A stretch of DNA of 54,432 nt from a bacterium. GTDB taxonomy: Bacteria > SZUA-182 > DTGQ01 > JAFGSM01. Under the pieces are notes generated by a model. The model made no database searches, was not told the origin of the DNA, and was given only the letters and a program-made list of their open reading frames with translations. Made by a program: the position numbers and the translations under genes. The stretch covers positions 1 through 54,432 of the forward strand of contig JAFGSM010000265.1 of assembly GCA_016934595.1 (NCBI GenBank), in the 5' to 3' direction. This document shows positions 3,734-54,432 of this stretch, piece after piece (positions within the stretch are counted from its first letter, which is position 1; every line of letters starts with the position of its first letter).

Positions 3734-5212
3734 CTAAATGGTTTTTGCCATGGCCAAAGGCTCTTCTTCGAGCTCTTTTTTATATTCCTTGTTTCCTGGC
3801 GCATATTCCTTATATCCGTCTTCAAGATCATATTTCTCTATCCTGTAGCATATCTGATCGCGGGTCATTCCAAGAAGCCTTGCAGCATGCGTCCTGTTGC
3901 TCGAGCACAAATCAAGCGCCTGCTTCACAAGGTCCTTTTCAAGGGCGTAAAAGTCTATCCCCTCTGGGGGGAGTGCGCACATGCGCTGTTTTCTTAACAA
4001 ACACTTATCATCACGAAGATCCAATGGCAGGTCCTCAATGACTATCTCTTTCTTATTGCCTAAAAGCATTGCCCTCTCGATGCAGTTGCGAAGCTCCCTG
4101 ATATTTCCAGGCCAGTTGTATTGCATCAGGACATTAAGGGCGGACCTGGATATGGATTTTACATCCTTCCTGAATTTTTTGTTAAATTCCTCTATCAACA
4201 TGTCTGCCAGTATAGGTATTTCCTCTTTTCTTTCCCTTAATGGCGCCAGATTCAGGTTTATTATATTAAGCCTGTAGTAGAGATCCTCCCTGAACCTTTT
4301 TTCCTGAATGGCCGGTTTTAGTTCCTGGTTGGTGGCGGCTATGACCCTGACATCGACATTTATGTCCTTTAGCCCTCCCACCCTTTTGAACGACCGTTCC
4401 TCCAGGAAATACAATATCTTGGCCTGGAGGGTTAGCGGCATATCTCCAACCTCGTCAAGGAATAATGTCCCTCCGTCCGCAAGCTCAAGCAGTCCCTTTT
4501 TGCTGTTTTTCGCATCTGTGAACGCACCCTTTTCATATCCCATAAGCTCGCTTTCAAGTAGGGTTTCAGGGACTGAAGAGCAGATGATCTGCATAAAAGG
4601 GCCGCTTGCCCTGTCGCTGTTCTCATGGATCATCCTTGCAAGCAGGCTCTTACCCGTGCCGCTTTCTCCTGTGATGAGAATTGTTGATGCCCCTGTTTTT
4701 GCTATTTTTGCCACTGTATCAAAGACATCCTGCATGCACCTGCTTTTTCCCACCATCCTTGTTTCCCCGTATTCATGCTGAAGTTTTTCCTTAAGCTCCT
4801 TTATCTCGCGTCTTAATTTTGTGGTTTCCAGGGCGTTATTTATTGTTATGACAAGCTTGTCGAAATTTACGGGCTTTTTAAAATAGTCATATGCCCCGAC
4901 CTTCATGAAATCCACGGCGCTGTCCACGCTGCCGTATGCGGTGATAATGATGACGAGCAGATCAGGATATTCCTCCTTTGTATGTCTCAGAATATCCATT
5001 CCGTCCATATCCGGGAGGCATTGATCGAGCATGATCAGATCAAAGGATTCATCCTTCAGAAGATTCATGGCGGATTTGCCGTCTTCGGCGCCCTTAACGT
5101 CGTATCCCTCCCTTTTCAAGCGCTCCGTTAATGACCATCTCAAGGATTTTTCATCATCAACGATCATGATCCTTTCAGAGTGCATTTTCTGCCCCTTTTC
5201 TATAGAATCCAT
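3734..5212 (-). CDS. Sigma54-dependent NtrC-family response regulator (REC-AAA+-Fis HTH)
   Basis: REC IVDDE/LDQCLP/KKP; GESGTGKS; ESELMGYEKGAFTDA; LFLDEV; FREDLYYRL; WPGNIREL; HTH. Confidence 0.96.
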   Translation of the reverse strand: MDSIEKGQKMHSERIMIVDDEKSLRWSLTERLKREGYDVKGAEDGKSAMNLLKDESFDLIMLDQCLPDMDGMDILRHTKEEYPDLLVIIITAYGSVDSAVDFMKVGAYDYFKKPVNFDKLVITINNALETTKLRREIKELKEKLQHEYGETRMVGKSRCMQDVFDTVAKIAKTGASTILITGESGTGKSLLARMIHENSDRASGPFMQIICSSVPETLLESELMGYEKGAFTDAKNSKKGLLELADGGTLFLDEVGDMPLTLQAKILYFLEERSFKRVGGLKDINVDVRVIAATNQELKPAIQEKRFREDLYYRLNIINLNLAPLRERKEEIPILADMLIEEFNKKFRKDVKSISRSALNVLMQYNWPGNIRELRNCIERAMLLGNKKEIVIEDLPLDLRDDKCLLRKQRMCALPPEGIDFYALEKDLVKQALDLCSSNRTHAARLLGMTRDQICYRIEKYDLEDGYKEYAPGNKEYKKELEEEPLAMAKTI

Positions 5213-5230
5213 TCATTTTTAAGCATCCCC

Positions 5231-6637
5231 TTAACACAGTATATTTTCCCCCTTCATGAGTTTGGGCAGGCTGACAATAAATGTCGTCCCTTTCCCTGGT
5301 TCGCTTTCCACGCTTATCTCACCCTGATGCGCCTCTATGACCCTTTTTGTAACGGAAAGTCCTATGCCCGTGCCCGAGCGTTTCGTAGTAAAGAAAGGGC
5401 TAAATATCTTCTTCATATTGTCCCTGGATATCCCCTTGCCTGTATCCTTTATGTTTATAAAGATATTTTTTCCCTTCTGGGATGAGCTTATGGTCAGGAT
5501 ACCTTCCACTTCATCCATGGCATGAAAGCCGTTTATCATGAGATTAGTAAATGCCTTCCCCAAAAGCCTGGGATCGATCATCACCATAGGGATTGACCCA
5601 TCCATGTCCTTGATGACTCTTATATTGTTTTTGCCTGCGCCGTGTTGAACTATCGAAATGCTTTCCTCAAGCAGGGAGTTGATATCGTAGTTTATAAGCT
5701 CGGGACGAGGCCTCCTTACACAACGAAGAAGGTCATCCACGATCTTGTCCATTCTGCCGATCTGAACCCTGATCTCCCTGATGATCTCCCTCTGTTCGGT
5801 TTCAAGGTCTTGTTCCAGCATTCCGCTCAGGTTGTCTATGCCTGCCAGGGGGTTTCTGATCTCATGGGCAAGGCCTGCAGCAAGCTCCCCTATTGAGGCC
5901 AGATTCTCGCTTTCCTTAAGCTTTGATTCCAGCCTGGTTTTTTCTGTCACGTCCCTCATTATCGATGAATAGCCTGTTATCTTTCCGTCTTTATCCCTTA
6001 TTGCGGTTCTTGTGAGGTTTACCATTATGATTTTTCCGTACTTTGTCATCCTCTCGGTCTGGTAGTCTTTGACGAATCCATTTACATAGACCTCATGAAA
6101 GAGGTTTGTCAATTCCCCTTCTTTTCTCTGCCTTTCAGGAACCATTGTATGAATCGGCTTGCCGATCATTTCATCAGCCATATAGCCGAATATCTCTTCC
6201 GCCCCTTTGTTCCACAAACGAATTATTCCGTTGTTGTCGAAGCTTACGATGGCATCGGCTGAGCTTTCAATGATGGCGGAGAAATATTTTTCAGCGCTTT
6301 CCGTCTTTTCCCTATAGATTTTTGTCGCTGTGATGACAAGGCATAAGGCAATGCCTGACACCAGCATGACCGTCGCTATGGTCGTTATCGCAAACAGATA
6401 GTGCATAGTCGCCCTGTCTGATGCCTTAAAATAAACACTCTCCGTGTATTGCCAGATGGAATAAACTACCCACATGACAGGGATGCTCCAAAGGGTCAAC
6501 CGGACTATAGGGGATACCTTTTTCTCCCTTTCATAGACCGATTTGAGGCCTTCCTTGCCTTTCGTTATTATATCGGAGCCGGGCGAAAACCTTTTTCCAA
6601 AAATCTGGTCTATCTTCCAACAGTTTCCGTTCATCAA
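5231..6637 (-). CDS. Membrane PAS-domain sensor histidine kinase
   Basis: 2 TM, PAS (WNKGAEEIFGY), H-box LAHEIRNPL, DTGKGI, FFTTK, GTGIGL. Confidence 0.95.
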   Translation of the reverse strand: MMNGNCWKIDQIFGKRFSPGSDIITKGKEGLKSVYEREKKVSPIVRLTLWSIPVMWVVYSIWQYTESVYFKASDRATMHYLFAITTIATVMLVSGIALCLVITATKIYREKTESAEKYFSAIIESSADAIVSFDNNGIIRLWNKGAEEIFGYMADEMIGKPIHTMVPERQRKEGELTNLFHEVYVNGFVKDYQTERMTKYGKIIMVNLTRTAIRDKDGKITGYSSIMRDVTEKTRLESKLKESENLASIGELAAGLAHEIRNPLAGIDNLSGMLEQDLETEQREIIREIRVQIGRMDKIVDDLLRCVRRPRPELINYDINSLLEESISIVQHGAGKNNIRVIKDMDGSIPMVMIDPRLLGKAFTNLMINGFHAMDEVEGILTISSSQKGKNIFINIKDTGKGISRDNMKKIFSPFFTTKRSGTGIGLSVTKRVIEAHQGEISVESEPGKGTTFIVSLPKLMKGENILC

Positions 6638-7316: not shown

Positions 7317-9689
7317 ATGAGTTTTTTCAGGGAAAAGATTAATCTTGCCTTATGTGCATGCATCATATTGGTTTTTTTTATCTTTATCTCTGCCATTTTG
7401 AAGACTTTATGCACACCAAGGATCATGGAGGATTTCGAAGAGCATAATATTCCAGGGATAATAACCATCTCAGAGATACAGGCGGAAATAGCCAAAATAA
7501 AGATATGGGTCCTGTTTTACCTTCTGCACGGGAATATTGAAGTGGGGGGAGGGGATTTAAAGGGCATCATCAATGCCGAATATGAGTATCTTAAATTAAA
7601 CGTAGTTGAGCATTTAGGCAATGAGACGCACGCCGTAATCGAAGATCAACTGGTCGGAGACAGATTGTTGAACCTGACGAACAAATTCATGCTTATCGCC
7701 AATGAGGTTATGAATCTGAAGGATAGAGGGATCGGCATAGATAAATTGAAGCAGAAGATACGAAACGACCTTCTTCCCCTTTTTTATGAATTGAATGAAT
7801 TGACAACAGAGCACAAATTTTTGCACGTCGAAGAGATAGCGTCGACGGTATCCAGTATACACAGGAAAAACAAACCTTATTTTGTATTTATAATTCTGTT
7901 GAGCCTTTTGTCTATAGCAGGGCTTGTACTGACAGGCTTTTATATAAAGGATTTTCAGAAAAAAATCCTCCTTGCCAAGGAGCAGGAGAATATCATGGCA
8001 AAGACAAAAGAGGAGGCAGAGACGGCAAGCTCCACAAAAAGTCATTATCTCAAGAAGATATCTTTTGAGGCGCGCACGGCATTGAATGCCGTTCTTGGGG
8101 TCTCGGATATGATCCTCACCAGTCATCCAAGCTGGCAGCATCGCGAATATGTGGAGATGATAAAGGGGTCATCAAACTCCCTTTTGACTTTTGTCAACAA
8201 TATCCTTAACTTCACTGAGATAGAGGTCAAGCGCATAAATATTGAAAATAACCCCTTCGATCTCAGAAAGATTCTCGAGTTATCAGCCAGCACATTGGCC
8301 TACAGGGCATACGAGAAGGGTCTTAAATTTGCCTTATGGGTAAAACAGGATGTCCCTGTATCCCTTGTTGGTGATCCTGAAAAGCTGGGCATGGTAATCT
8401 TCAATCTTGGGATCAATGCCATCAATTTTACTGAGACGGGCGAGATAGTGATTATATGCAGGACCGAAAGCCGCACCAACGAGAACGCCCAGTTGCATTT
8501 TACTGTGTCCGACACGGGCGCAGGCATCCAGCAGGAGAAACTGGACAGGATATTTTACAACCTGAATGAGCACAAGGGCACGCTAGCATACAAATACAGG
8601 GCAGAGGGACTGGGCCTTTATATCTCCAAGCAGCTTGTGGAGGCTATGGGAGGAAGAATATGGGCGGAGAGCGAGCTGAATAAGGGTTCGAATTTCCATT
8701 TTACAGCAAGGTTCATGATCGGCTCCAAGGATAATTCGGAAAGACCAGAGGCAAAACTCAAGGGATTTAGAGGCGCCAAAATACTCGTGGCCGAAAGCAA
8801 TGAGATAAACCGCAAGATTTTGATAGAGATGCTTTCTGCCTGGGGTTTCAATTGCGAAGGTGTGAACAAGGGAAAGGCCGTGATTCAGGAGATTGAAAAG
8901 GGAAGCGCGGAGGGCATGCCCTATCAGGCGCTTCTTCTGGATTCCCAGCTTCCGGACACCCCTACCTTAAAGGGGTTAAAGGAATTAAAGGAAGATGAAA
9001 AAATAAGAAGGTTTCAGATCATCCTTCTGAATTCCATCGGCTCAAGAGAGGATATGGACCGTTTCAGGGAACTGGGAGTCGCGAAGTACTTATTGAAACC
9101 TGTAAAGCAGGCAGAACTCATAGATGAGCTTTATGACGCCCTCAATAAAAAGGCCGTTTCAATTTCAACGGAAAAAGCGGAAGATCCTGAAAAACAGGAT
9201 AAAATTCCTCAGCAAGCCGGCGCATCACAAGATATTGAGGCAAAAGAGGATCAGAAGGCACAAGGATACATGATCCTTCTATGCGAAGACAATTTGGTCA
9301 ACCAGAAGATGGCTACCATGCTGCTTGATAAGTATGGGCACAAGGTCACTGTGGCAAAGAATGGAGAGGAGGGCGTTAAGCTTTTTGAGGAAATGCCCTT
9401 TGACCTTGTATTGATGGATGTTGATATGCCGGTTATGAACGGGCTGGAGGCCACTATGAAGATTCGAGAAAAGGAAAAATCCACAGGGACACATTTGCCC
9501 ATTATCGCAATGACCGCGCACGCAATGAAGGAGGACAGGCAGAAATGTCTCGAGGCAGGCATGGATGACCATATATCAAAACCCATCAAGATGTCGGATC
9601 TCCAGGACAGCATGAACAGGGTTATGCCGTCTCTGCGGAAGAAGGCGGAATATCCCGTGGCGGTTGTGGGGGATAAGAGTCCAGACTAA
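7317..9689 (+). CDS. Hybrid sensor kinase-like protein (2TM-HisKA*-HATPase-REC-REC) with H-box His replaced by Phe
   Basis: KSHYLKKISFEARTALN aligns with [17 protein letters not shown]; N box NLGINAINFT, DTGAGI, GLGL; two receivers with D and KP. Confidence 0.9.
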   Translation: MSFFREKINLALCACIILVFFIFISAILKTLCTPRIMEDFEEHNIPGIITISEIQAEIAKIKIWVLFYLLHGNIEVGGGDLKGIINAEYEYLKLNVVEHLGNETHAVIEDQLVGDRLLNLTNKFMLIANEVMNLKDRGIGIDKLKQKIRNDLLPLFYELNELTTEHKFLHVEEIASTVSSIHRKNKPYFVFIILLSLLSIAGLVLTGFYIKDFQKKILLAKEQENIMAKTKEEAETASSTKSHYLKKISFEARTALNAVLGVSDMILTSHPSWQHREYVEMIKGSSNSLLTFVNNILNFTEIEVKRINIENNPFDLRKILELSASTLAYRAYEKGLKFALWVKQDVPVSLVGDPEKLGMVIFNLGINAINFTETGEIVIICRTESRTNENAQLHFTVSDTGAGIQQEKLDRIFYNLNEHKGTLAYKYRAEGLGLYISKQLVEAMGGRIWAESELNKGSNFHFTARFMIGSKDNSERPEAKLKGFRGAKILVAESNEINRKILIEMLSAWGFNCEGVNKGKAVIQEIEKGSAEGMPYQALLLDSQLPDTPTLKGLKELKEDEKIRRFQIILLNSIGSREDMDRFRELGVAKYLLKPVKQAELIDELYDALNKKAVSISTEKAEDPEKQDKIPQQAGASQDIEAKEDQKAQGYMILLCEDNLVNQKMATMLLDKYGHKVTVAKNGEEGVKLFEEMPFDLVLMDVDMPVMNGLEATMKIREKEKSTGTHLPIIAMTAHAMKEDRQKCLEAGMDDHISKPIKMSDLQDSMNRVMPSLRKKAEYPVAVVGDKSPD

Positions 9690-9720: not shown

Positions 9721-10803
9721 ATGAGCCAAAGAAAATCTGAAAGGGATAAAGAAGGATATGCCATTTTTGATAAGCGTCATGAGGTTGCAATATCTGGGAG
9801 TAGGCGCTTCGGTTTCACAAAACTGTCCATAGCCGTTTTATTTGTTTTTCTTTGTATATTAATTGGTCTATTAATGGCAAAAAAGGGGGGTTCCCTTCAA
9901 AAAGGAAAAGAGATAACAGGAAACACCCTTGCCGCCTTTATAAAAAGTAGCAGAGAAGGGCAGGGAGTTGCGATCGCCGAATCGTCCGCATCATTTGACA
10001 GCATTGTGATACATTCCATTGATTACAAGATGGCCTATATACCTCCTGGCTCATTTATTATGGGAAGCCCTGGCAGGCCGGCCAGGGTAAATATAGACCA
10101 GACACAGCACAGGGTGGTGATATCCAAGGGATTTTATATGGGCATTACAGAGGTTACCCAAAGTCAATGGGAGTCAGTAATGGGAGAGAATCCTTCCTAT
10201 TTTAAAAAGTGCGGAGGGGAGTGCCCTGTTGAGAATGTTTCATGGGATGATTGCCAGGAGTTTATTAAGAGGCTGAACCTTATGGAAGGTGGCGGCTTAT
10301 TTCGTCTGCCAACCGAAGCCGAATGGGAGTATGCGTGCAGGGCAGGCAGTCAGACAGCCATCTATACAGGGCCTATGGATATCAAAGATAACCGTATAGC
10401 AGCGGAGCTTGATCCTATTGCATGGTATGCAGGAAACAGCTGTGCAGATTACCATGGGGTATGGGATTGTTTGAATTGGCCTGAGAACATCCATAAATGT
10501 CGGGGCTGCGGCGTACATCCTGTGGCCCGGAAAGAGCCCAATATCTGGGGGCTTTATGATATGCTGGGCAATGTATGGGAGTGGTGCCAGGACTGGTATG
10601 GAGGATATCCGGCAGATCAGGTCATAGATCCAAGAGGGCCTTCAAACGGCAGACACCGTATATTTCGGGGCGGAGGCTGGATGAGCGGCGCACAATCCTG
10701 CTGTTGCGGATATCGTAACTACCATCATCCTGATTATCATTACAGCACATTAGGCCTTCGTCTTGCAGGAGACCTGCATAATTATAGATTTTCAGATAAA
10801 TAA
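9721..10803 (+). CDS. Membrane-anchored FGE-sulfatase (SUMF1/CLec-fold) domain protein
   Basis: FIMGS, TEVTQ, PVENVSW, RLPTEAEWEYACRAG, NIWGLYDMLGNVWEW, RGGGW...GLRL; start set at ATG 9721 after AAGGAG. Confidence 0.9.
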   Translation: MSQRKSERDKEGYAIFDKRHEVAISGSRRFGFTKLSIAVLFVFLCILIGLLMAKKGGSLQKGKEITGNTLAAFIKSSREGQGVAIAESSASFDSIVIHSIDYKMAYIPPGSFIMGSPGRPARVNIDQTQHRVVISKGFYMGITEVTQSQWESVMGENPSYFKKCGGECPVENVSWDDCQEFIKRLNLMEGGGLFRLPTEAEWEYACRAGSQTAIYTGPMDIKDNRIAAELDPIAWYAGNSCADYHGVWDCLNWPENIHKCRGCGVHPVARKEPNIWGLYDMLGNVWEWCQDWYGGYPADQVIDPRGPSNGRHRIFRGGGWMSGAQSCCCGYRNYHHPDYHYSTLGLRLAGDLHNYRFSDK

Positions 10804-11023
10804 TTACAAAAAATTTTCTTGCATTAATCAGAAATTACAAAAGGTTAGAGAGCAAAGATTGTGTAATTTAATTTCTGAAAATCTATACAATGAGCGCTTT
10901 ATTTTTTATCTGTGCAAAAACATCTTTAAAAATATTCCATATTGACTTTGCCCCATCCATCACACAAATCAACGGCAATAGCAATCGGTTCAATGGATTC
11001 TTCAAAGAGCCATCTTTATCTTC

Positions 11024-11278
11024 GATAATGATTTATTAAGAGAGGCTGCCTGTCGTCAGTGGAAGGGGAACCCTTTTGCAGGCTTGATTTATGCCCATCC
11101 CTTAAAAGTTTCTATTGGAATCTGTATTCGATTCTGCAAGTAACCCCCATAACCTTATAGTCACAACGAAGCATGAAAATGAATAAAAGCAAAGTATTGT
11201 TCGATCATTTTCATAGAAATTGCAAAGGCAGGAGAATTTGAAGATTTATCCAATCAAGTCATATTTTTACCACTGTAG
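11024..11278 (+). pseudogene. DUF5615/PIN-like toxin remnant split by an ~80-bp insertion
   Basis: 11024-11131 reads DNDLLREAACRQWKGNPFAGLIYAHPLKVSIGICIR and 11213-11278 reads IEIAKAGEFEDLSNQVIFLPL* in the same frame; N-terminus mostly lost; family recognised from memory. Confidence 0.65.
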
Positions 11279-11402: not shown

Positions 11403-11584
11403 AACCTTTTTTGGCGATCATACCGGTTGATTTTTATAAGAGCATAAAATAGGTTATAAATCTTCGATTCACAAAGGGGAATGAAAATACCCAGAAGGGA
11501 TTTTCAGACGAAAATTCCTATGCGATCAATATAAATCAGGCATGCATCTATTCAGAACTCTGCAGAGACTCCCATGGGAATATC

Positions 11585-12217
11585 TTATTTGCCGACCAAT
11601 TCAACAAATTTTTCTTTTAGTTTGTCACAATGTTCAAAAAATGATGAACCATCAAACTCTATTTTTTTCTCATCAAGAGTAATGGCTTTATAATATCCAT
11701 ACCCCATAGAATCTACTACAATAAGGCGACTTACTTTACTTTTTAATTTTTGTTCTAAAAAAATCCAAGTTTTTAAAAATTCAAAAATATATTTAGCATT
11801 TTTCTTATTATCCATATATACCCCACCAAAAGGCAATCTAAAAAAAATTTTACTCCACGAATCAACCCTTTGGTAATAAAAAGCATAACTATTACACCCA
11901 TGTCCCCAGAAACCAATCAGAAAGTAACCTTCCGGACAAGATTTTAAAAAGCTTTCAATGCCAACTTGCACAAGAAAAATATCTTTTTGTGACCCCGTTT
12001 GAATAGATTTGGCAACCTTGGACCCGAAAAGCAAATCAAAGGTAATCGTAGGTTCAACAGCCCATTTTTTTCCATTGTTATCAGTTTCTGTATGTGGCAC
12101 AAAAGACTTGTTATCCTTAGAATTTTTATTGAGCGAAACCAATTTCTCCTTGGGCAACATAATGTTAGGTAAAGGCTTTCCGATATTTTTCTTAAAATAT
12201 TTAAGAAGTTTTTCCAT
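11585..12217 (-). CDS. Hypothetical protein, third gene of AT-rich operon
   Basis: 210-aa ORF with AGGAGA RBS, 14 bp after the MBL gene; GFWGHGCNSYAFYY and PFGGVY segments; no family recognised. Confidence 0.8.
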   Translation of the reverse strand: MEKLLKYFKKNIGKPLPNIMLPKEKLVSLNKNSKDNKSFVPHTETDNNGKKWAVEPTITFDLLFGSKVAKSIQTGSQKDIFLVQVGIESFLKSCPEGYFLIGFWGHGCNSYAFYYQRVDSWSKIFFRLPFGGVYMDNKKNAKYIFEFLKTWIFLEQKLKSKVSRLIVVDSMGYGYYKAITLDEKKIEFDGSSFFEHCDKLKEKFVELVGK

Positions 12218-12231
12218 AAATTATTCTCCTT

Positions 12232-13494
12232 TTAAAAATAAAATTCTTCTTTATCCTTTAACATACACACACTGAATCCTGTAAACTGGTTTTCATATTG
12301 CTCTGGATAGTTTGTATGAATAGGAATAACCGTTTTAGGATTAAGCTTATCAACCATTTTTTTGAGTGTATCAATATCAGCATGGCCGCTAGTATGAATA
12401 TTATGCACGCGCATATTTTTATCTTTAACAAAATCAATAAGTTCCATTGTATGAGTATTATTAAGGTATCCCTGCCAAATCGAATAGATAAAATCGCCTC
12501 GGTCTAATCCTTTGATTAAACGCAGGTCAAATATTACGGACGGCCTTACTAACATAATTATTTTATGTTTTTTCTTAGATATTTCATTTCGGTTAATTTT
12601 GTAATACCTGTAACGATAAATTAATTTTTTTCTGTTCTTTTCAGCTATGCGGTTGGCTAACAAGTGCGGAAAATAAACTCTTACTTCAGGGAAAATACTT
12701 TTGTTTGTATATGGAACGCGGGCATGATCCTTAATTTCGGAAAGGATATTTGCAGTATAAAAATCAATGACAAACAATCGGCTTGATCTTCGAGCCACTC
12801 TGAACAATGTAACCAGGCGGTCAATATTTTGTGATGATAGATAGGCCAATATTATGTTTTTATTTGATGACATGGCAATGTCCAAAATTTCCTTCTCTAT
12901 ATCGGATTCCTTTTTCACATTTTCAGAGGATCTTCCGAACATCGTTCCTTCTATAAGCAGGGTGTCTATATCAGTCGGGCCGTTTCTTATAAATTTGTGG
13001 AATAGTTTTGCTTTTCTGCCGTGAGCCCGGAAATCTCCGGAATAAAACAATTTTTTGCCACCGGCTTCAATCAGAAAAGCATAAGCGTCAAAGGCCGAAT
13101 GGTCTACTAGAAATGGCGTGATGGTGAACGACTTAATCTTGAAAGCCTTTCTGTCTTCTATAGGTTTAAATTGGCCGATATGCCCTTTTTGTGATGTAAA
13201 AAGCACGGTCAAATCTATCAGTTTTTTGGCTGCAGCGCCCACATAATAAGGCATATCATCCCTGAGATGCTCAAAATAGCCATAATGGTCTATATGTGGA
13301 TGGGAAATCAGCATACCATCTATGCCGAGCGGGGCGATTTCATCCTTGTATATACCTTTAATGTCAGGCGGTTTTTTTGTGTCTGGGTCAATTAACGGAC
13401 TGCCTATGTCAACCAGTATACGATCATTACCGTTTACGATTTCCAAGCAACTTCCGCCAATTTCATGAGAACCCCGGTGAATGACTATATTCAT
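12232..13494 (-). CDS. RNase J-like metallo-beta-lactamase/beta-CASP nuclease
   Basis: HRGSHEIGGS, SHPHIDHYG, VDHS, YSGDFR, IEGT, HTSGHA, PIHT. Confidence 0.9.
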   Translation of the reverse strand: MNIVIHRGSHEIGGSCLEIVNGNDRILVDIGSPLIDPDTKKPPDIKGIYKDEIAPLGIDGMLISHPHIDHYGYFEHLRDDMPYYVGAAAKKLIDLTVLFTSQKGHIGQFKPIEDRKAFKIKSFTITPFLVDHSAFDAYAFLIEAGGKKLFYSGDFRAHGRKAKLFHKFIRNGPTDIDTLLIEGTMFGRSSENVKKESDIEKEILDIAMSSNKNIILAYLSSQNIDRLVTLFRVARRSSRLFVIDFYTANILSEIKDHARVPYTNKSIFPEVRVYFPHLLANRIAEKNRKKLIYRYRYYKINRNEISKKKHKIIMLVRPSVIFDLRLIKGLDRGDFIYSIWQGYLNNTHTMELIDFVKDKNMRVHNIHTSGHADIDTLKKMVDKLNPKTVIPIHTNYPEQYENQFTGFSVCMLKDKEEFYF

Positions 13495-14483
13495 TTTTTA
13501 AACATATTTCCTATTTTAAGGTTTGATAAATGGCCTATTTGGTAAAACTCGATTGAATTCGGCAAGTTTTCTTTAAATTGGGCTTTGAGTTTTCCATATT
13601 TTTGGTCATTGTCAAAACCAAAAACAATTAAGATTACTTTCCGGTCTATTTCTTTTGGGTAAGGGAGTCTCATCGGAAACATTTTATTCAAAATGTCAAT
13701 GCAAACATGATATTTTTCAAGTAAGCTCAGTCTTATGGTTTCATTATTGACTTGTTCCTCATAACGTTCAATCTGCTCAACTACTTTTGGAGGTCCTTTG
13801 TCAGCCCAAATTTCTTTATTTGAAAAATGCTTCACTTCGCAGAACATAAGCCGTTGTTTGTTCTTATTAAAAAACAGAATGTCTATCCTGTCTTGCTTTT
13901 TTTCATTTTTAAGACATTTAAGAGACACCTCGATATCCAGTATGACAATATTTTCTTTGGATGATGAATAAGAATATTTATTATATATTTTAGAGACCCC
14001 GTTGGCTTCAATACCGGCGTATAATGAACAGTTCTCTTTTATCCTTTCATAGGCCTCGGCAAAGCTGGTTATTCTTTGACAGTCAGAAATTTCCGATTCA
14101 TAAATGTAAGTATTTTCGTGTTTATAAACAGAAGCAAATTTAATATTCGTTTTAAATCCATTTTTATCATATCCGAAAAGCTTGCTTCCTTTATGATAAA
14201 AATCAATGCAGTTTTTTCTTATTGCCATAAAAACATTGCCATTCTTAATGTCTTCCGACATTTTTTTAAATAATGATTCTTCCTGCAATTTAGCCGTCAA
14301 TTCATCTAATTTAATCGCATAGGAATTTTCATTTTTTCTATGCGGGTTTTCGGGCAGGTTTAACAAAGTCCGCCCGAAGGGCGCTAATTTAATCGCATAG
14401 GAACGTTCATTTTTTCCATACGGGTTTCCATGCAGTTTTTTAGTCTGCCCAATGGTCGCTAATTCAAAATCCTTTTTAGACAT
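13491..14483 (-). CDS. Putative PD-(D/E)xK-superfamily nuclease with N-terminal tandem repeats
   Basis: LDIEV...RIDILF...FCEVK...EQIERY pattern; ATGA overlap with the MBL gene. Confidence 0.7.
   Translation of the reverse strand: MSKKDFELATIGQTKKLHGNPYGKNERSYAIKLAPFGRTLLNLPENPHRKNENSYAIKLDELTAKLQEESLFKKMSEDIKNGNVFMAIRKNCIDFYHKGSKLFGYDKNGFKTNIKFASVYKHENTYIYESEISDCQRITSFAEAYERIKENCSLYAGIEANGVSKIYNKYSYSSSKENIVILDIEVSLKCLKNEKKQDRIDILFFNKNKQRLMFCEVKHFSNKEIWADKGPPKVVEQIERYEEQVNNETIRLSLLEKYHVCIDILNKMFPMRLPYPKEIDRKVILIVFGFDNDQKYGKLKAQFKENLPNSIEFYQIGHLSNLKIGNMFKK
14306..14464. repeat. In-frame ~78-bp tandem duplication with hairpins inside the nuclease 5' end
   Basis: 14306-14350 vs 14384-14428 match at 40/45 positions; protein LATIGQT-KKLHGNPYGKNERSYAIK / LAPFGRTLLNLPENPHRKNENSYAIK. 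Confidence 0.9.
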
Positions 14484-19224: not shown

Positions 19225-20107
19225 GTGCAAACACCCCTTCCTTTTCAGGCGCAGGCTCATTCGCTGATACAGGCTCTCCCTTTTTGTAGATCAGGGCTTG
19301 CGGAAACCTTTTTATCTCAAACTTGTCGAATATGCCGGTCAGTGACTCCGAATGGCCAAGCAAGAGGTATCCTCCGGGGCGCAGGGCGTTGTAGAAATTG
19401 CTTATGGCGGTTTTTATCTTGGCCTCCGAGAAATAGATCAGGACGTTCCTGCAGAATATGATATCATAGCTCAGTGATGGCAGGGGAGAGATTATGTTGC
19501 CGGTCATAAAAGATGCCATATCCTTGATATTATTTTTTATGATATAGGTTCCTTCCAGGGGGGTGAAGAATCTCTCTCTGTATTTCGGGTCTGTCATCCT
19601 AAGGGATCGTTCGTAATACAGGCCCTGGCGGGCGGTTTCCACGGCCTTTTCACTGATGTCCATGCCTGTTATCTTGATATCCCACCCCCCCAAAAAGATG
19701 CCCGTGTCATATGTCAGCATTGCAAGGGTATATACCTCTTCCCCTGTAGAGCAGCCTGCGGAAAGCACCCTGATTCGCTTGTCATCCTTTATAATCCTTT
19801 TCTCCCTTAATTCCGGCAGGAGCTTTTCCTTAAAGATATCCAGTTGGGGTATTTCCCTGAAGAAGTAGGTCTCATTGTTGGTCAACTGGGATATCATAGT
19901 GGAGAGTTCCCTGCTGTTTCCCTGCCCGTATTTAAGAAAATTTATATACTCGTTAAATGACCTGAATCCGTTGGCAACCAGGCGGGGAGATATCTTCATA
20001 TTGATATAGGAGCGCTTTTCCCCCTTGAAAAATATCCCGAACCTCTCATGGATGAACTCCTGCAGCAGCAGGAATTCAAGTTCTGATAATTGGAATTGGT
20101 TTATCAT
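19211..20107 (-). CDS. cheR: Chemotaxis methyltransferase CheR (copy 1)
   Basis: TNNETYFFRE, SAGCSTGEEVY, IFCRNVLIYF, LGHSES. Confidence 0.96.
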   Translation of the reverse strand: MINQFQLSELEFLLLQEFIHERFGIFFKGEKRSYINMKISPRLVANGFRSFNEYINFLKYGQGNSRELSTMISQLTNNETYFFREIPQLDIFKEKLLPELREKRIIKDDKRIRVLSAGCSTGEEVYTLAMLTYDTGIFLGGWDIKITGMDISEKAVETARQGLYYERSLRMTDPKYRERFFTPLEGTYIIKNNIKDMASFMTGNIISPLPSLSYDIIFCRNVLIYFSEAKIKTAISNFYNALRPGGYLLLGHSESLTGIFDKFEIKRFPQALIYKKGEPVSANEPAPEKEGVFAHAGK

Positions 20108-22482
20108 TTACCGGCCTCCAGTTTTTTCAACGCCAGGGCCGCCTCTCTGCGGACATCATCCTCAGGGTCCTCTTTCTGTATCTTGAGCAGGGAGGGTATC
20201 GCCATTGGGTCCCTTATTTCTCCGAGGGCCTTTGCCACTGAACAGCGGACTGTAAAGAATTCATTCTGAAGGAGCCTTGTAAGGAATTCCACCACATCAT
20301 GGCCTTTCAATCTGCCAAGCAGCTCAACCAGCCGGCACTTGAGCATGGTGCTTGACCTCCTGAAGAAGTCATAGAAGAATTCCAGATCAGGTATGCCGAG
20401 TTTTTCCAGTGTGCTTATGACCTCCAGTTGAAGGTTTTCATTCTGGATCAGGGGAAGTATTTTGTTTACCGCATCAGTGGCATTTAATGCGTATAGCGCA
20501 TTCAGCACCTCCTTCTTGATTATATCCTTAGGATCATCTATCCTTTTCAGGATATGTGCCTCGCACCTCTTGTCCCCAATCTTTGCAAGCGCCTGTATCG
20601 CTGCTATCCTTACCCTCCAGTCAGGATCATCCAGGGCTATTATAAGGTAAGGTATGGAAGTCTTGTCCCTCAGCTTTCCAAGAGATTCAAGCGCCGTCCG
20701 CTTCAGATCAGGATCTGACCCTCTGAGTGTATGCACGAGAAACTGCCTGCAGCTTTTGTCCTGTATGTTCCCCATTGCCTCCAGGATCGTCAGGCGGTCC
20801 TTTTTGTCGCAATTCTGAAATATGTCTATAAAATGTTTAATGGCGGATGCATCCCCCTTCCTTCCCAGGGTCTCGATCACAGCGGTCCTCACCTCAGTGT
20901 CCGGATCGCTCAGCAGCTCATACAGCGTATTCTTCAGATTCTCATCCATACCGTGCTCTATGCTGTGCGCCACAGCCCTTCTCACCATCGGGCTTTTGTC
21001 TATAAGCCCCTTGTGGAGTATGTCCTTTGGAAGGTTGTCGGCAAGGATGGAGCTCAATGCGCTGTAAACATAAGCACGGACCTCGTCCGTCTGACCTTCC
21101 AGGAGTCTTTTTAGTGGTGCGCATGCCCTCTGATTCTGAAGTTTTCCAAGTATCTGTATGGCGTTGAGCCTCCTTGTGTATATTTCGGAGTCAAGCTCCA
21201 AGAGGAGTTTATCTGTCAGTCTCTTTGACCTTGACCTGCCAAGTATTTCTATAAGCATCTCACGGATCTCGGGGTCAGGATCATAGAGGAGCCCGACAAG
21301 GGCATCCTCGACCTCTTCCAGTTCCACCCCCGCGGCCATGGTCATGATCGCATGATACCTTACCTCCTTGTCTTCGTCTTTGAGAAAGGGTATGCATGCC
21401 TTTATCCCGTCTATGCTTCCGATCCAGTCTATGCAGCGGATAAGGGATGTCTTGATCTTGGGATCGGGGTTTTCAAGCCGCTCTGTCAATGCGGAAAGGT
21501 CGCCCTCCCCGATCGAGATCAATGCCCCTACTATATATTCTTCCAGATCATATATGCTGAGAAGTTCAAGGAGCTTGCCTACCGCCTTTTTTTCCTGAAG
21601 CCATCCAAGGGCGATGATGGCGTTCTTTTTTACCTCAGGCTCCGGATCATTTAGGGAATTCAGCAAATGGTCGATAAGGGTCACATTGCTCAGTGCGGTC
21701 TTTATGCTGGGAAGGCATGCGCCGTCAGGCTCGACCCTCCTCTGGATATTGATCAGGGCCGCTATGGCGGTATTCCTGATCATAGGATCGTTTTGTGAGA
21801 GGATATCCGCAAATACGGGTATGACCGATATGTCGCCTATCTTTCCCAGGGCCTCCATTACAGGCTCCCTGACCATCTCATCATTTATGAAACCGACAAG
21901 GTGTTTTGTGGCGGAGATATCGCCTATCTCCCCCAAAGCCATTATTACGGAATATTGTATCCAGAAATCCTGGTTGAGACATTCCACCAGGGGACCGACC
22001 GCCCTTGCATCCCCGATCTTGCCGAGGCTCTCGGCCGAGGCGTGCTTCACGTTTTCATCAGGGTCATTAAGGGCCTCTATCAATTGATTCACAGACTCAG
22101 GGTCCTTTATCTGAGAAAAAATGTTGGCGGTGAACAGCCTGACATCCCTGTCTTCATCCTTAAGAAGAGGAAGCAGATAGGGCGTGGCCTTTTTCCCGTA
22201 TAATGGAAAGACCTCCATAGCAGTGCTTCGGAGCTTGGCCTTTGTGTGATCCCTTAAGAATTCTTCGAGCCTTGGGAATATCCTATCGTCAGGGAATGAG
22301 GATAGCCCTTTCAATGCCTCTTCACGGACACGATAGCTTACATCCCCGGCCGCCTTTATGAGGAGCGGGACTGTCTCCTCAGAACGGCAGTCTATAAGCC
22401 CCCTGACCGCCGAAAAACGGATCTCCTCCGTCTCTGAGGACAGGTCTTTATCTATGGTTTTAAACAGCTCTTTATTGTCCAT
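20104..22482 (-). CDS. HEAT/PBS-lyase repeat protein
   Basis: Many DxDxxVRxxAxxALGxIGD units over 792 aa. Confidence 0.93.
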   Translation of the reverse strand: MDNKELFKTIDKDLSSETEEIRFSAVRGLIDCRSEETVPLLIKAAGDVSYRVREEALKGLSSFPDDRIFPRLEEFLRDHTKAKLRSTAMEVFPLYGKKATPYLLPLLKDEDRDVRLFTANIFSQIKDPESVNQLIEALNDPDENVKHASAESLGKIGDARAVGPLVECLNQDFWIQYSVIMALGEIGDISATKHLVGFINDEMVREPVMEALGKIGDISVIPVFADILSQNDPMIRNTAIAALINIQRRVEPDGACLPSIKTALSNVTLIDHLLNSLNDPEPEVKKNAIIALGWLQEKKAVGKLLELLSIYDLEEYIVGALISIGEGDLSALTERLENPDPKIKTSLIRCIDWIGSIDGIKACIPFLKDEDKEVRYHAIMTMAAGVELEEVEDALVGLLYDPDPEIREMLIEILGRSRSKRLTDKLLLELDSEIYTRRLNAIQILGKLQNQRACAPLKRLLEGQTDEVRAYVYSALSSILADNLPKDILHKGLIDKSPMVRRAVAHSIEHGMDENLKNTLYELLSDPDTEVRTAVIETLGRKGDASAIKHFIDIFQNCDKKDRLTILEAMGNIQDKSCRQFLVHTLRGSDPDLKRTALESLGKLRDKTSIPYLIIALDDPDWRVRIAAIQALAKIGDKRCEAHILKRIDDPKDIIKKEVLNALYALNATDAVNKILPLIQNENLQLEVISTLEKLGIPDLEFFYDFFRRSSTMLKCRLVELLGRLKGHDVVEFLTRLLQNEFFTVRCSVAKALGEIRDPMAIPSLLKIQKEDPEDDVRREAALALKKLEAGK

Positions 22483-54382: not shown

Positions 54383-54432
54383 ATGGAATTTTACGCCCAC
54401 AGTATAAAAGGAAGGCCGGTTAATGAATGGCA
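54383..54432 (+). CDS. Truncated ORF start resembling the Cas3 HD-domain N-terminus
   Basis: MEFYAHSIKGRPVNEW(Q/H), running off the window; in-frame alternative ATG at 54338. Confidence 0.5.
   Translation, partial: MEFYAHSIKGRPVNEW

Follow-up and report, generated by a model that had tools for sequence, protein, structure and literature searches.

Two nuclease genes at the locus

In this analysis we examined three adjacent minus-strand genes of contig JAFGSM010000265.1 (bacterial assembly GCA_016934595.1), the whole of which, at 54,432 nucleotides, is referred to here as the window. Gene 1 encodes a PD-(D/E)xK nuclease, gene 2 a beta-CASP nuclease of the metallo-beta-lactamase (MBL) fold, and gene 3 a small protein (Table 1). 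Comparison with related loci from many phyla revealed that genes 1 and 2 are a copy of a conserved, mobile nuclease pair whose upstream member, termed the partner here, varies from locus to locus, and which may have an immune role. There is an overlap of 4 nt between genes 1 and 2 (13491-13494) and a gap of 14 bp between genes 2 and 3 (12218-12231), and the G+C content is 0.33-0.38 across 11-15 kb versus 0.44-0.47 in both flanks. Thus, the tight coupling and the AT-richness of the trio, both of which had been pointed out in an earlier note made from the sequence of this DNA, are borne out by the coordinates and the composition.

Table 1. Features at and around the nuclease gene pair (positions in the window; ORF, open reading frame)
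Feature	Position	Strand	Description
Gene 1 ORF	14483..13491	minus	330 aa
Gene 1, conserved part	13491..14306	minus	about residues 60-330; PD-(D/E)xK nuclease (RecB/Cas4-like) with a small N-terminal beta domain; variable partner
Gene 1 ORF, 5' extension	14306..14483	minus	two tandem copies of a dispersed hairpin repeat (direct repeat D1)
Gene 2 ORF	12232..13494	minus	420 aa; beta-CASP MBL-fold nuclease; conserved core of the pair
Gene 3 ORF	11585..12217	minus	210 aa; small uncharacterised family
Dispersed repeat copy downstream of gene 3	11443..11536		96 other places on 75 contigs
AT-rich non-coding stretch	10780..11226		two further dispersed repeat families, 10780-10890 and 11129-11226

The product of gene 2 has Pfam matches to Lactamase_B_2 (1.4e-14) and RMMBL (6.2e-10), both above the Pfam cut-offs. 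In an alignment of gene 2 with 24 homologs, the MBL motifs (H65/H67/D69/H70, H132 and D154) are invariant, as are beta-CASP motifs A (E182), B (H371) and C (H393, in IPIHT) in the same 25 sequences. Gene 2 therefore has the combination that defines the beta-CASP subfamily, namely MBL motifs 1-4 together with an acidic residue in motif A, a histidine in motif B and a histidine or valine in motif C, and the earlier note had been right in assigning it a full catalytic set that includes the motif-C histidine. By profile, its nearest solved relative is 2AZ4 (EF2904, function unknown; 1.7e-31), followed by RNase J chains at 6.5e-21 and weaker, and by CPSF73 and Integrator-11.

The core of gene 1 consists of D183, D201 and E216-x-K218, followed by Q-x-x-x-Y. 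Six positions are invariant in the alignment of gene 1 with 23 homologs (A3), R15, Y22, D109, D127, E142 and K144, which correspond to residues R89, Y96, D183, D201, E216 and K218 of the ORF, and E142-x-K144 is followed by a mostly conserved Q/H-x-x-x-Y/F, which we take to be the RecB/Cas4-type signature. Profile matches to gene 1 were sub-threshold in Pfam (HSDR_N_2 at 19.5 bits versus a cut-off of 25, and DUF234), and PADLOC gave CARF_PDDEXK at 5.5e-4. The AlphaFold model (predicted local distance difference test, pLDDT, 81.4; predicted template modelling score 0.75) consists of a beta unit of four strands at the N-terminus and a C-terminal domain of alpha/beta type. The structure search that the earlier note had proposed for this gene placed PD-(D/E)xK nucleases in all of the top rows: the Bax1 nuclease (Z 7.4), SduA (7.4), Upx (7.3), BstEII (6.9) and MunI (6.8) matched residues 83-256, with VC1899, a XisH-like protein and Can2 (6.5) as further matches. 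These Z values, 6.2-7.4, are only middling, and receiver domains come next at 5.1-5.5; Foldseek against the Protein Data Bank (PDB) returned nothing for gene 1 at E<=0.001, and the partner sequence profile nothing below E 0.1 in the PDB. It is the motifs of the aligned homologs and partners that identify gene 1 as a PD-(D/E)xK nuclease, and the fold matches point the same way.

The 5' end of the gene 1 ORF is a different matter. Its residues ~6-60 are encoded by two tandem repeat copies (14306-14361 and 14384-14439; 86% alike, 78 nt apart) of a hairpin-containing repeat of ~86 nt, which the 3.16-Mb assembly has at 68 further places, spread over 54 contigs. Homologs of gene 1 align only from about residue 52-73 on and none aligns to residues 1-51, and the first ~59 codons are probably not native coding sequence. 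Alternative starts are TTG near residues 62 and 66 and ATG at residue 75, none of which has a convincing ribosome-binding site. The ATG of the ORF (14483) lies 20 bp past the stop (14504) of an upstream CHASE8 hybrid histidine kinase gene; since the true start of gene 1 is uncertain, so is this 20-bp coupling. Despite the repeat-derived 5' end, the catalytic part of gene 1 is intact.

Conservation of the pair and exchange of the partner

We compared 80 loci with MBL homologs from many phyla. In 71 of them a same-strand ORF ends no more than 100 nt upstream of the MBL start, most overlapping it by 1-4 nt. The nine exceptions are four loci in which the MBL gene lies at a contig end (L009, L018, L051, L066), four with larger gaps (L034, L035, L044, L080) and one with a neighbour on the opposite strand (L057). 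Close relatives of gene 1 (37-49% identity) are directly upstream of the MBL gene in six loci; by BLAST clustering, 27 loci have a partner in the cluster of gene 1 and the rest fall into 24 other clusters. When gene 1 was aligned with 70 upstream proteins (A2), mean column identity was 8% and the D...ExK core was all that the proteins had in common; D201 and K218, which belong to the pattern of acidic residues, EVK and Q..RY that the earlier note had picked out in gene 1, were at least 90% conserved across these 71 partners. Pfam matches among the 71 partners are HSDR_N_2 (four), PDDEXK_9 (three), SduA_C (two), and NucS_C, PDDEXK_4 and EcoRII-C (one each), one partner is an AAA ATPase, and PADLOC matches include PDC-S11 (up to 10 members, best 1.5e-8) and Cas4 (five).

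The genes downstream of the MBL gene are unrelated (63 clusters), there is no other conserved neighbour, and gene 3 is missing from every one of the 80 loci. From the coupling in 71 loci and the shared D...ExK core it follows that the conserved unit is a pair and not a trio: a PD-(D/E)xK gene directly upstream of a beta-CASP MBL gene of ~430 aa. The trio that the earlier note had presented as one system thus stands as far as the co-occurrence of genes 1 and 2 is concerned, and falls with respect to gene 3.

Considerable variability exists in which partner a given MBL has. On a FastTree tree of 78 MBL sequences, 60 of which were labelled by nine partner clusters and 18 left unlabelled, the partner labels need 29 changes, versus a mean of 30.1 for shuffled labels (57 of 200 shuffles were equally good), so that partner types are distributed over the MBL tree as if by chance, with the caveat that partner cluster 1 is a loose single-linkage group. 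MBLs separated by a branch length of less than 0.15 can have partners of different clusters (L014/L022 versus L015, L055 versus L065, and L053 versus L054). Fusions of the two genes also exist. Among the 150 best representatives, 21 are at least 520 aa long and seven of these join the MBL to a partner-type domain from five partner subfamilies, as judged from protein sequences alone, in which read-through artefacts are possible. Six have the order MBL then partner (P0225, P0237, P0265, P0290, P0291 and P0316; BLAST against locus partners 1e-89 to 3e-19), P0291 matching the subfamily of gene 1 itself, and one has the order partner then MBL (P0304); as separate genes, the order MBL then partner is found in L076. 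The partner is translationally coupled to the MBL, and most likely the two work together. Prediction of a complex between MBL and partner (alignments A1 and A3) gave 0.00 in both runs, a value that the predictor treats as no verdict.

Some loci have other arrangements. In L002 an AAA protein holds the upstream partner position, and in L038 (1205-4180), L068 (4656-7649) and the proteins P0182 and P0297 the MBL is joined to a C-terminal classic AAA+ ATPase domain (PF00004, about 1e-22). In L039, PD-(D/E)xK partner-type genes that are 38% identical to each other flank the MBL gene on both sides (4737-6005 and 7357-8991).

The MBL family is large. More than 5,820 of 8,000 candidates scored were matches. 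At 50% identity there are 4,266 clusters at E<=1e-3, 2,137 at 1e-10 and 762 at 1e-30, and there are at least 523 confirmed stretches in a collection with one genome per species of bacteria and archaea. MBLs from different phyla are 37-49% identical, with invariant catalytic motifs, and the MBL tree mixes phyla: Paceibacterota, for example, group beside Gammaproteobacteria, and Cloacimonadota beside Desulfobacterales. In the window's phylum, for which 20 genomes were compared, a true ortholog was found in one, the window's own genome (1.4e-186), while seven other matches in phylum genomes were at about 1e-6 and spanned 45-110 positions. A comparison with 30 relatives gave no DNA match to the trio. 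The low G+C content, the single ortholog in the phylum and the phylum-mixed tree together indicate that the module was acquired horizontally, as the earlier note had proposed.

These findings also bear on whether the MBL is a paralog of the housekeeping RNase J that has chance neighbours. Many homologs have been named 'ribonuclease J' by the Joint Genome Institute, and there is a partial match of gene 2 to the NCBIfam RNase J model TIGR00649. The architecture of gene 2, an MBL domain with a beta-CASP insertion and RMMBL and with motifs 1-4, A, B and C (His), is indeed that of the branch formed by RNase J, CPSF73 and 2AZ4. However, gene 2 reaches 71.9 bits where TIGR00649 requires 400 and 60.9 where NF047419 requires 820, its best TIGR00649 stretch covers model positions 8-249 of 546, and at 420 aa it is shorter than RNase J and without its C-terminal region. 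Moreover, it is not vertically inherited, having one ortholog among the 20 phylum genomes and a tree incongruent with taxonomy, and nearly all members of its family have a PD-(D/E)xK gene coupled to them. The grouping with a vertically inherited housekeeping RNase J that the earlier note had considered was accordingly not seen, and the chance-neighbour explanation has next to no probability. To judge by its sub-cut-off score and its patchy occurrence in the phylum, gene 2 is a beta-CASP enzyme other than housekeeping RNase J.

Relatives of the MBL were found on 12 plasmid records at 27-36% identity, which also speaks for horizontal transfer, and in varied contexts. These include a cluster of N-6 methylase, Eco57I-type methylase and GIY-YIG genes with MobF; PP2C, RmuC and DUF4011; two DUF262 genes with WYL and a 3'-5' exonuclease, with a metallophosphatase gene directly after the MBL gene; a PD-(D/E)xK-UvrD pair; Tn3/TniB/TniQ cargo with a metallophosphoesterase; and DNA rich in insertion sequences. 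In a Prevotella plasmid (L092) and a Cereibacter plasmid (L178), both with distant MBLs, a metallophosphatase or metallophosphoesterase gene comes directly after the MBL gene and overlaps its stop, which suggests a three-gene variant.

Two explanations other than immunity draw on these contexts. Possibly, the pair processes DNA ends, or serves repair or recombination, for mobile elements such as plasmids and transposons. This is in line with the plasmid relatives, some of which are Tn3/TniBQ cargo or lie near MobF, resolvase or metallophosphoesterase genes, with the resolvase and recombinase genes among the neighbours described below, and with the variants in which an AAA+ ATPase is fused to the MBL or accompanies it. 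On the other hand, the plasmid relatives are distant, no recombinase, ligase or helicase neighbour is conserved among the 80 loci, and rapid exchange of non-orthologous partners would be unusual for a repair pathway, so we regard this explanation as improbable. The two genes might also be an addiction module of the toxin-antitoxin kind, one nuclease being toxic and the other protein its antidote. This would agree with their tight linkage in an operon of two genes, with its horizontal movement and with the toxin-antitoxin genes that adjoin it on some plasmids. It has a very small probability in our view, as both proteins have full catalytic motifs across hundreds of loci and fusion forms, which exist here, are atypical for such pairs.

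Comparison with known systems and possible role of the pair

In PADLOC no model matched any of the three proteins at a convincing E-value, and in the full-text literature no description was found of a PD-(D/E)xK and beta-CASP pair, the search not having reached the supplementary tables of discovery screens, which could list it. For the trio and for the pair, both sources agree with the earlier note that no named system matches.

The partner's C-terminal domain probably has the fold class of Shedu (SduA), Upx, Can2 and type II and IV restriction enzymes, and it has their D..ExK core. Unlike gene 1, Shedu and the other stand-alone PD-(D/E)xK defence nucleases have no obligatory MBL neighbour; in addition, their N-terminal domain is another one and they have no significant sequence match to gene 1. 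Identification of gene 1 as Shedu (SduA, DUF4263) was rejected, as no model matched it and just two of the 71 partners matched, at E 0.0017 or weaker. The PADLOC candidate PDC-S11, whose models are matched by ten of the 71 partners, has no match to gene 1 of the window. Membership of the partner in PDC-S11 was likewise rejected: the two matches seen in detail are confined to the nuclease core, with 36-44 residues out of the 359 profile positions, and in ten partners examined singly the PDC-S11 and Cas4 matches were short core matches.

The MBLs of Hachiman (HamMAB), Avs2 and Canu are described as resembling DNA-uptake nucleases of the ComEC type and as depending for their activation on a protease, trypsin-like or caspase (PMC12799240, PMC13069673). 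Those systems have in common with the present pair an MBL-fold nuclease as a conserved module with exchangeable partners, there in immune loci; here, by contrast, the MBL is a beta-CASP enzyme, the three proteins have no protease domain and PADLOC gave no Hachiman or Avs match. Cas14 of type VII CRISPR is also a beta-CASP nuclease that is used in prokaryotic immunity, but gene 2 scores 31 bits against its NF045584 cut-off of 800 and there is no CRISPR array or cas gene nearby. With regard to restriction-modification, no linked DNA methyltransferase was found in the trio or its flanks, and N6_N4_Mtase was found in two of 148 neighbours elsewhere. The '6A-MBL', described as ubiquitin-related (PMC13276650), is unrelated, and for CoCoNuT loci an 'MBL fold' neighbour is only listed in a figure legend (PMC11090510).

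A scan of neighbour families covered 148 of 281 selected neighbours, from 45 loci. PADLOC matches at E<=1e-8 were mad2 (four), WYL (three), and several MTase_II models, AriA, RT-protease and Cas3c (two each), and Pfam matches included resolvase (four), recombinase (three), AAA_15 and AAA_21 (two each) and N6_N4_Mtase (two).

We hold with great confidence that genes 1 and 2 form a nuclease pair that is both conserved and mobile, whatever its role. That they are a copy of a widespread two-gene module with a role in immunity against phages or plasmids is the reading we prefer, and the chances for and against it are evenly balanced. In its favour are the plasmid examples beside methylase and GIY-YIG genes, DUF262 and WYL, Tn3/TniBQ cargo and a PD-(D/E)xK-UvrD pair, as well as the mad2, WYL, MTase_II, AriA, resolvase and recombinase matches among the 148 neighbours. 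In the mechanism that we favour, which might be called 'cut and chew', the variable partner would recognise the target and make a first endonucleolytic cut that leaves 5'-phosphate ends, from which the conserved beta-CASP enzyme would degrade the nucleic acid in the 5'-to-3' direction. The two proteins could form a physical complex. Invading phage or plasmid DNA would presumably be told apart in a type-IV-like or structure-sensing way, as no methyltransferase is linked.

Several observations weigh against an immune role. The pair in the window sits amid signalling genes, with no defence island there. Elsewhere its neighbourhoods are mixed, the same 148 neighbours including AcrB, histidinol dehydrogenase and EPSP synthase. 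No match was found in 50,697 phage records, which carries little weight either way. Some of the long 'fusions' look like gene-calling chimeras, having DNA_pol3_finger or FtsZ_C domains. The native start or promoter of gene 1 may have been disturbed by the repeat insertion, and because of this possible disturbance the copy in the window may be poorly expressed. Lastly, the motif-C histidine and the RMMBL match point to RNA, and not DNA, as the substrate of the MBL.

The last of these points is the basis of another explanation, abortive infection through RNA, in which the RNase J-like beta-CASP enzyme would degrade cellular or phage RNA once the partner senses infection or is triggered by it. 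A histidine in motif C is typical of the RNA-acting members of the beta-CASP group, and gene 2 has one (H393), together with the RMMBL 'RNA specificity' domain, and RNase J, CPSF73 and Integrator-11 as its nearest named solved relatives. Its partner, however, appears to have the fold of a DNA nuclease, with a RecB/Cas4-like QxxxY motif, its nearest solved relative overall, 2AZ4, has no assigned substrate, and Pfam gave no sensor or signalling domain in the window's pair. On balance we consider RNA-targeting unlikely.

If the pair does have an immune role, it is a compact and very widespread two-nuclease system, as judged by the 762 clusters at E<=1e-30 and the at least 523 loci, whose specificity module is exchanged with the same freedom as the specificity subunits of restriction enzymes. 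Bacterial beta-CASP enzymes would gain a role beyond RNA turnover, and the pair would represent a new family of paired nucleases with recognition that is possibly programmable or exchangeable. Without an immune role it would remain a large, unnamed and mobile gene pair, for which the present labels ('MBL fold metallo-hydrolase', 'ribonuclease J' and 'hypothetical protein') are uninformative or wrong.

Gene 3, dispersed repeats and the surrounding genes

As the earlier note had found, gene 3 is not recognisable: it has no Pfam (E<=1), NCBIfam or PADLOC match. Its family comprises 52 homologs, typically of ~175 aa and without a Pfam domain, with which gene 3 shares its start and from which it differs by an insertion of ~35 residues that is modelled at low confidence. 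The model of gene 3 has a pLDDT of 87, and the structure search that had been proposed for it as well gave no convincing match: the best were VtrA (Z 6.2) and a hibernation factor (Z 6.0), both of which we rejected as having a common arrangement only, and Foldseek against the PDB returned nothing at E<=0.001. Look-alikes by language model are clusters of SUKH/SMI1 immunity proteins at 0.89, below the 0.9 mark of the tool; gene 3 has no Pfam match to SUKH at E<=1, and SUKH structures were absent among the fold matches listed. Within the phylum genomes, gene 3 was found in the window's own genome only.

In 75 metagenomic loci with a member of the gene 3 family, the MBL is present in three, namely L096/L097 (one context in two samples) and L108, where gene 3 comes first, then the partner and then the MBL, with partners of two different subfamilies. 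The family also adjoins GmrSD-type restriction enzymes in three independent contexts (L099/L100, L101 and L113) and DUF2779 nucleases in two (L136-138 and L142/143). As a separate observation, members of the family lie within longer proteins in L099 (3485-5266; 334 aa) and L136 (3397-4875; 359 aa).

Potentially, then, gene 3 could be an integral part of a three-gene system, for example as an inhibitor, an immunity protein or a regulator of the nucleases. Its position on the same strand 14 bp after the MBL gene, its recurrence beside partner and MBL in two more independent loci in another gene order, its relatives beside GmrSD and DUF2779 nucleases and the SUKH/SMI1 look-alikes are all compatible with such a function. 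Its absence from the 80 MBL loci, the rarity of the MBL in gene 3 loci and the lack of a Pfam or convincing fold match argue the other way, and repeated adjacency may merely mean that these genes share residence in variable islands; we therefore find a three-gene system quite unlikely. Since gene 3 recurs beside unrelated nucleases and is found in none of the 80 MBL loci, we treat it as a facultative accessory or an island neighbour, and it appears to be an optional neighbour that is no part of the conserved pair.

A bolder form of the immune reading gives such proteins a place. In it, the pair would be an undescribed, methylation-independent innate immune system of hundreds of lineages, in which a highly exchangeable PD-(D/E)xK enzyme determines what is recognised and nicks it and a conserved beta-CASP executioner, here outside type VII CRISPR, degrades it from the 5' ends, with gene-3-like proteins as optional brakes on the nucleases of several unrelated systems. 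We consider this conceivable but doubtful.

The earlier note had the trio abut toxin-antitoxin remnants, for which the region at 10.8-11.58 kb was examined. Their presence was not confirmed: ten stop-to-stop peptides from the region were without a Pfam match at E<=1, except for one at 0.041, no paralog of the putative remnants was found elsewhere in the genome, and the region is occupied instead by three dispersed repeat families. The family at 10780-10890 occurs at 11 other places on 10 contigs and that at 11129-11226 at 42 on 38 contigs; the third lies directly downstream of gene 3 (Table 1). A 27-nt arm of this third copy (11510-11536) is the inverted complement of 14304-14330 (inverted pair I2, 85% complementary), and inverted repeat arms thus bracket the trio. 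Given roughly 100 copies per genome, this bracketing may be coincidental. The conserved coding sequence of the trio (11585-14290) is free of repeat copies. Rfam over 10.5-14.7 kb (E<=1) gave one chance-level miRNA row inside gene 1 and no match to the repeat families.

In all, four repeat families were seen in the window (10780-10890, 11129-11226, 11443-11524 and 14298-14471), each about 60-110 nt long. Some of them bear hairpins, such as one with a CGCATAG...CTATGCG stem, and short matches to some were seen in related genomes.

In a scan for promoters and terminators, signals were not above those of shuffled sequence. No RNA dataset was listed as containing the stretch; one DNA run contains it and may be its source, and two metatranscriptome runs of the same study have next to none of its sequence words.

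The genes around the trio are of signalling and chemotaxis types: a PAS kinase, hybrid kinases, an FGE-sulfatase-like protein, a glycosyltransferase, CheB, CheR, a HEAT-repeat protein and a methyl-accepting chemotaxis protein. According to the earlier note, the trio starts 20 bp after the last che gene; the distance is correct for the ATG of the ORF, but the neighbour is the CHASE8 hybrid kinase gene and the che genes begin two genes further on. Between two CheR genes, at 20104-22482 of the window, lies a gene for a 792-aa protein that consists nearly entirely of HEAT repeats (12 HEAT_2 stretches).

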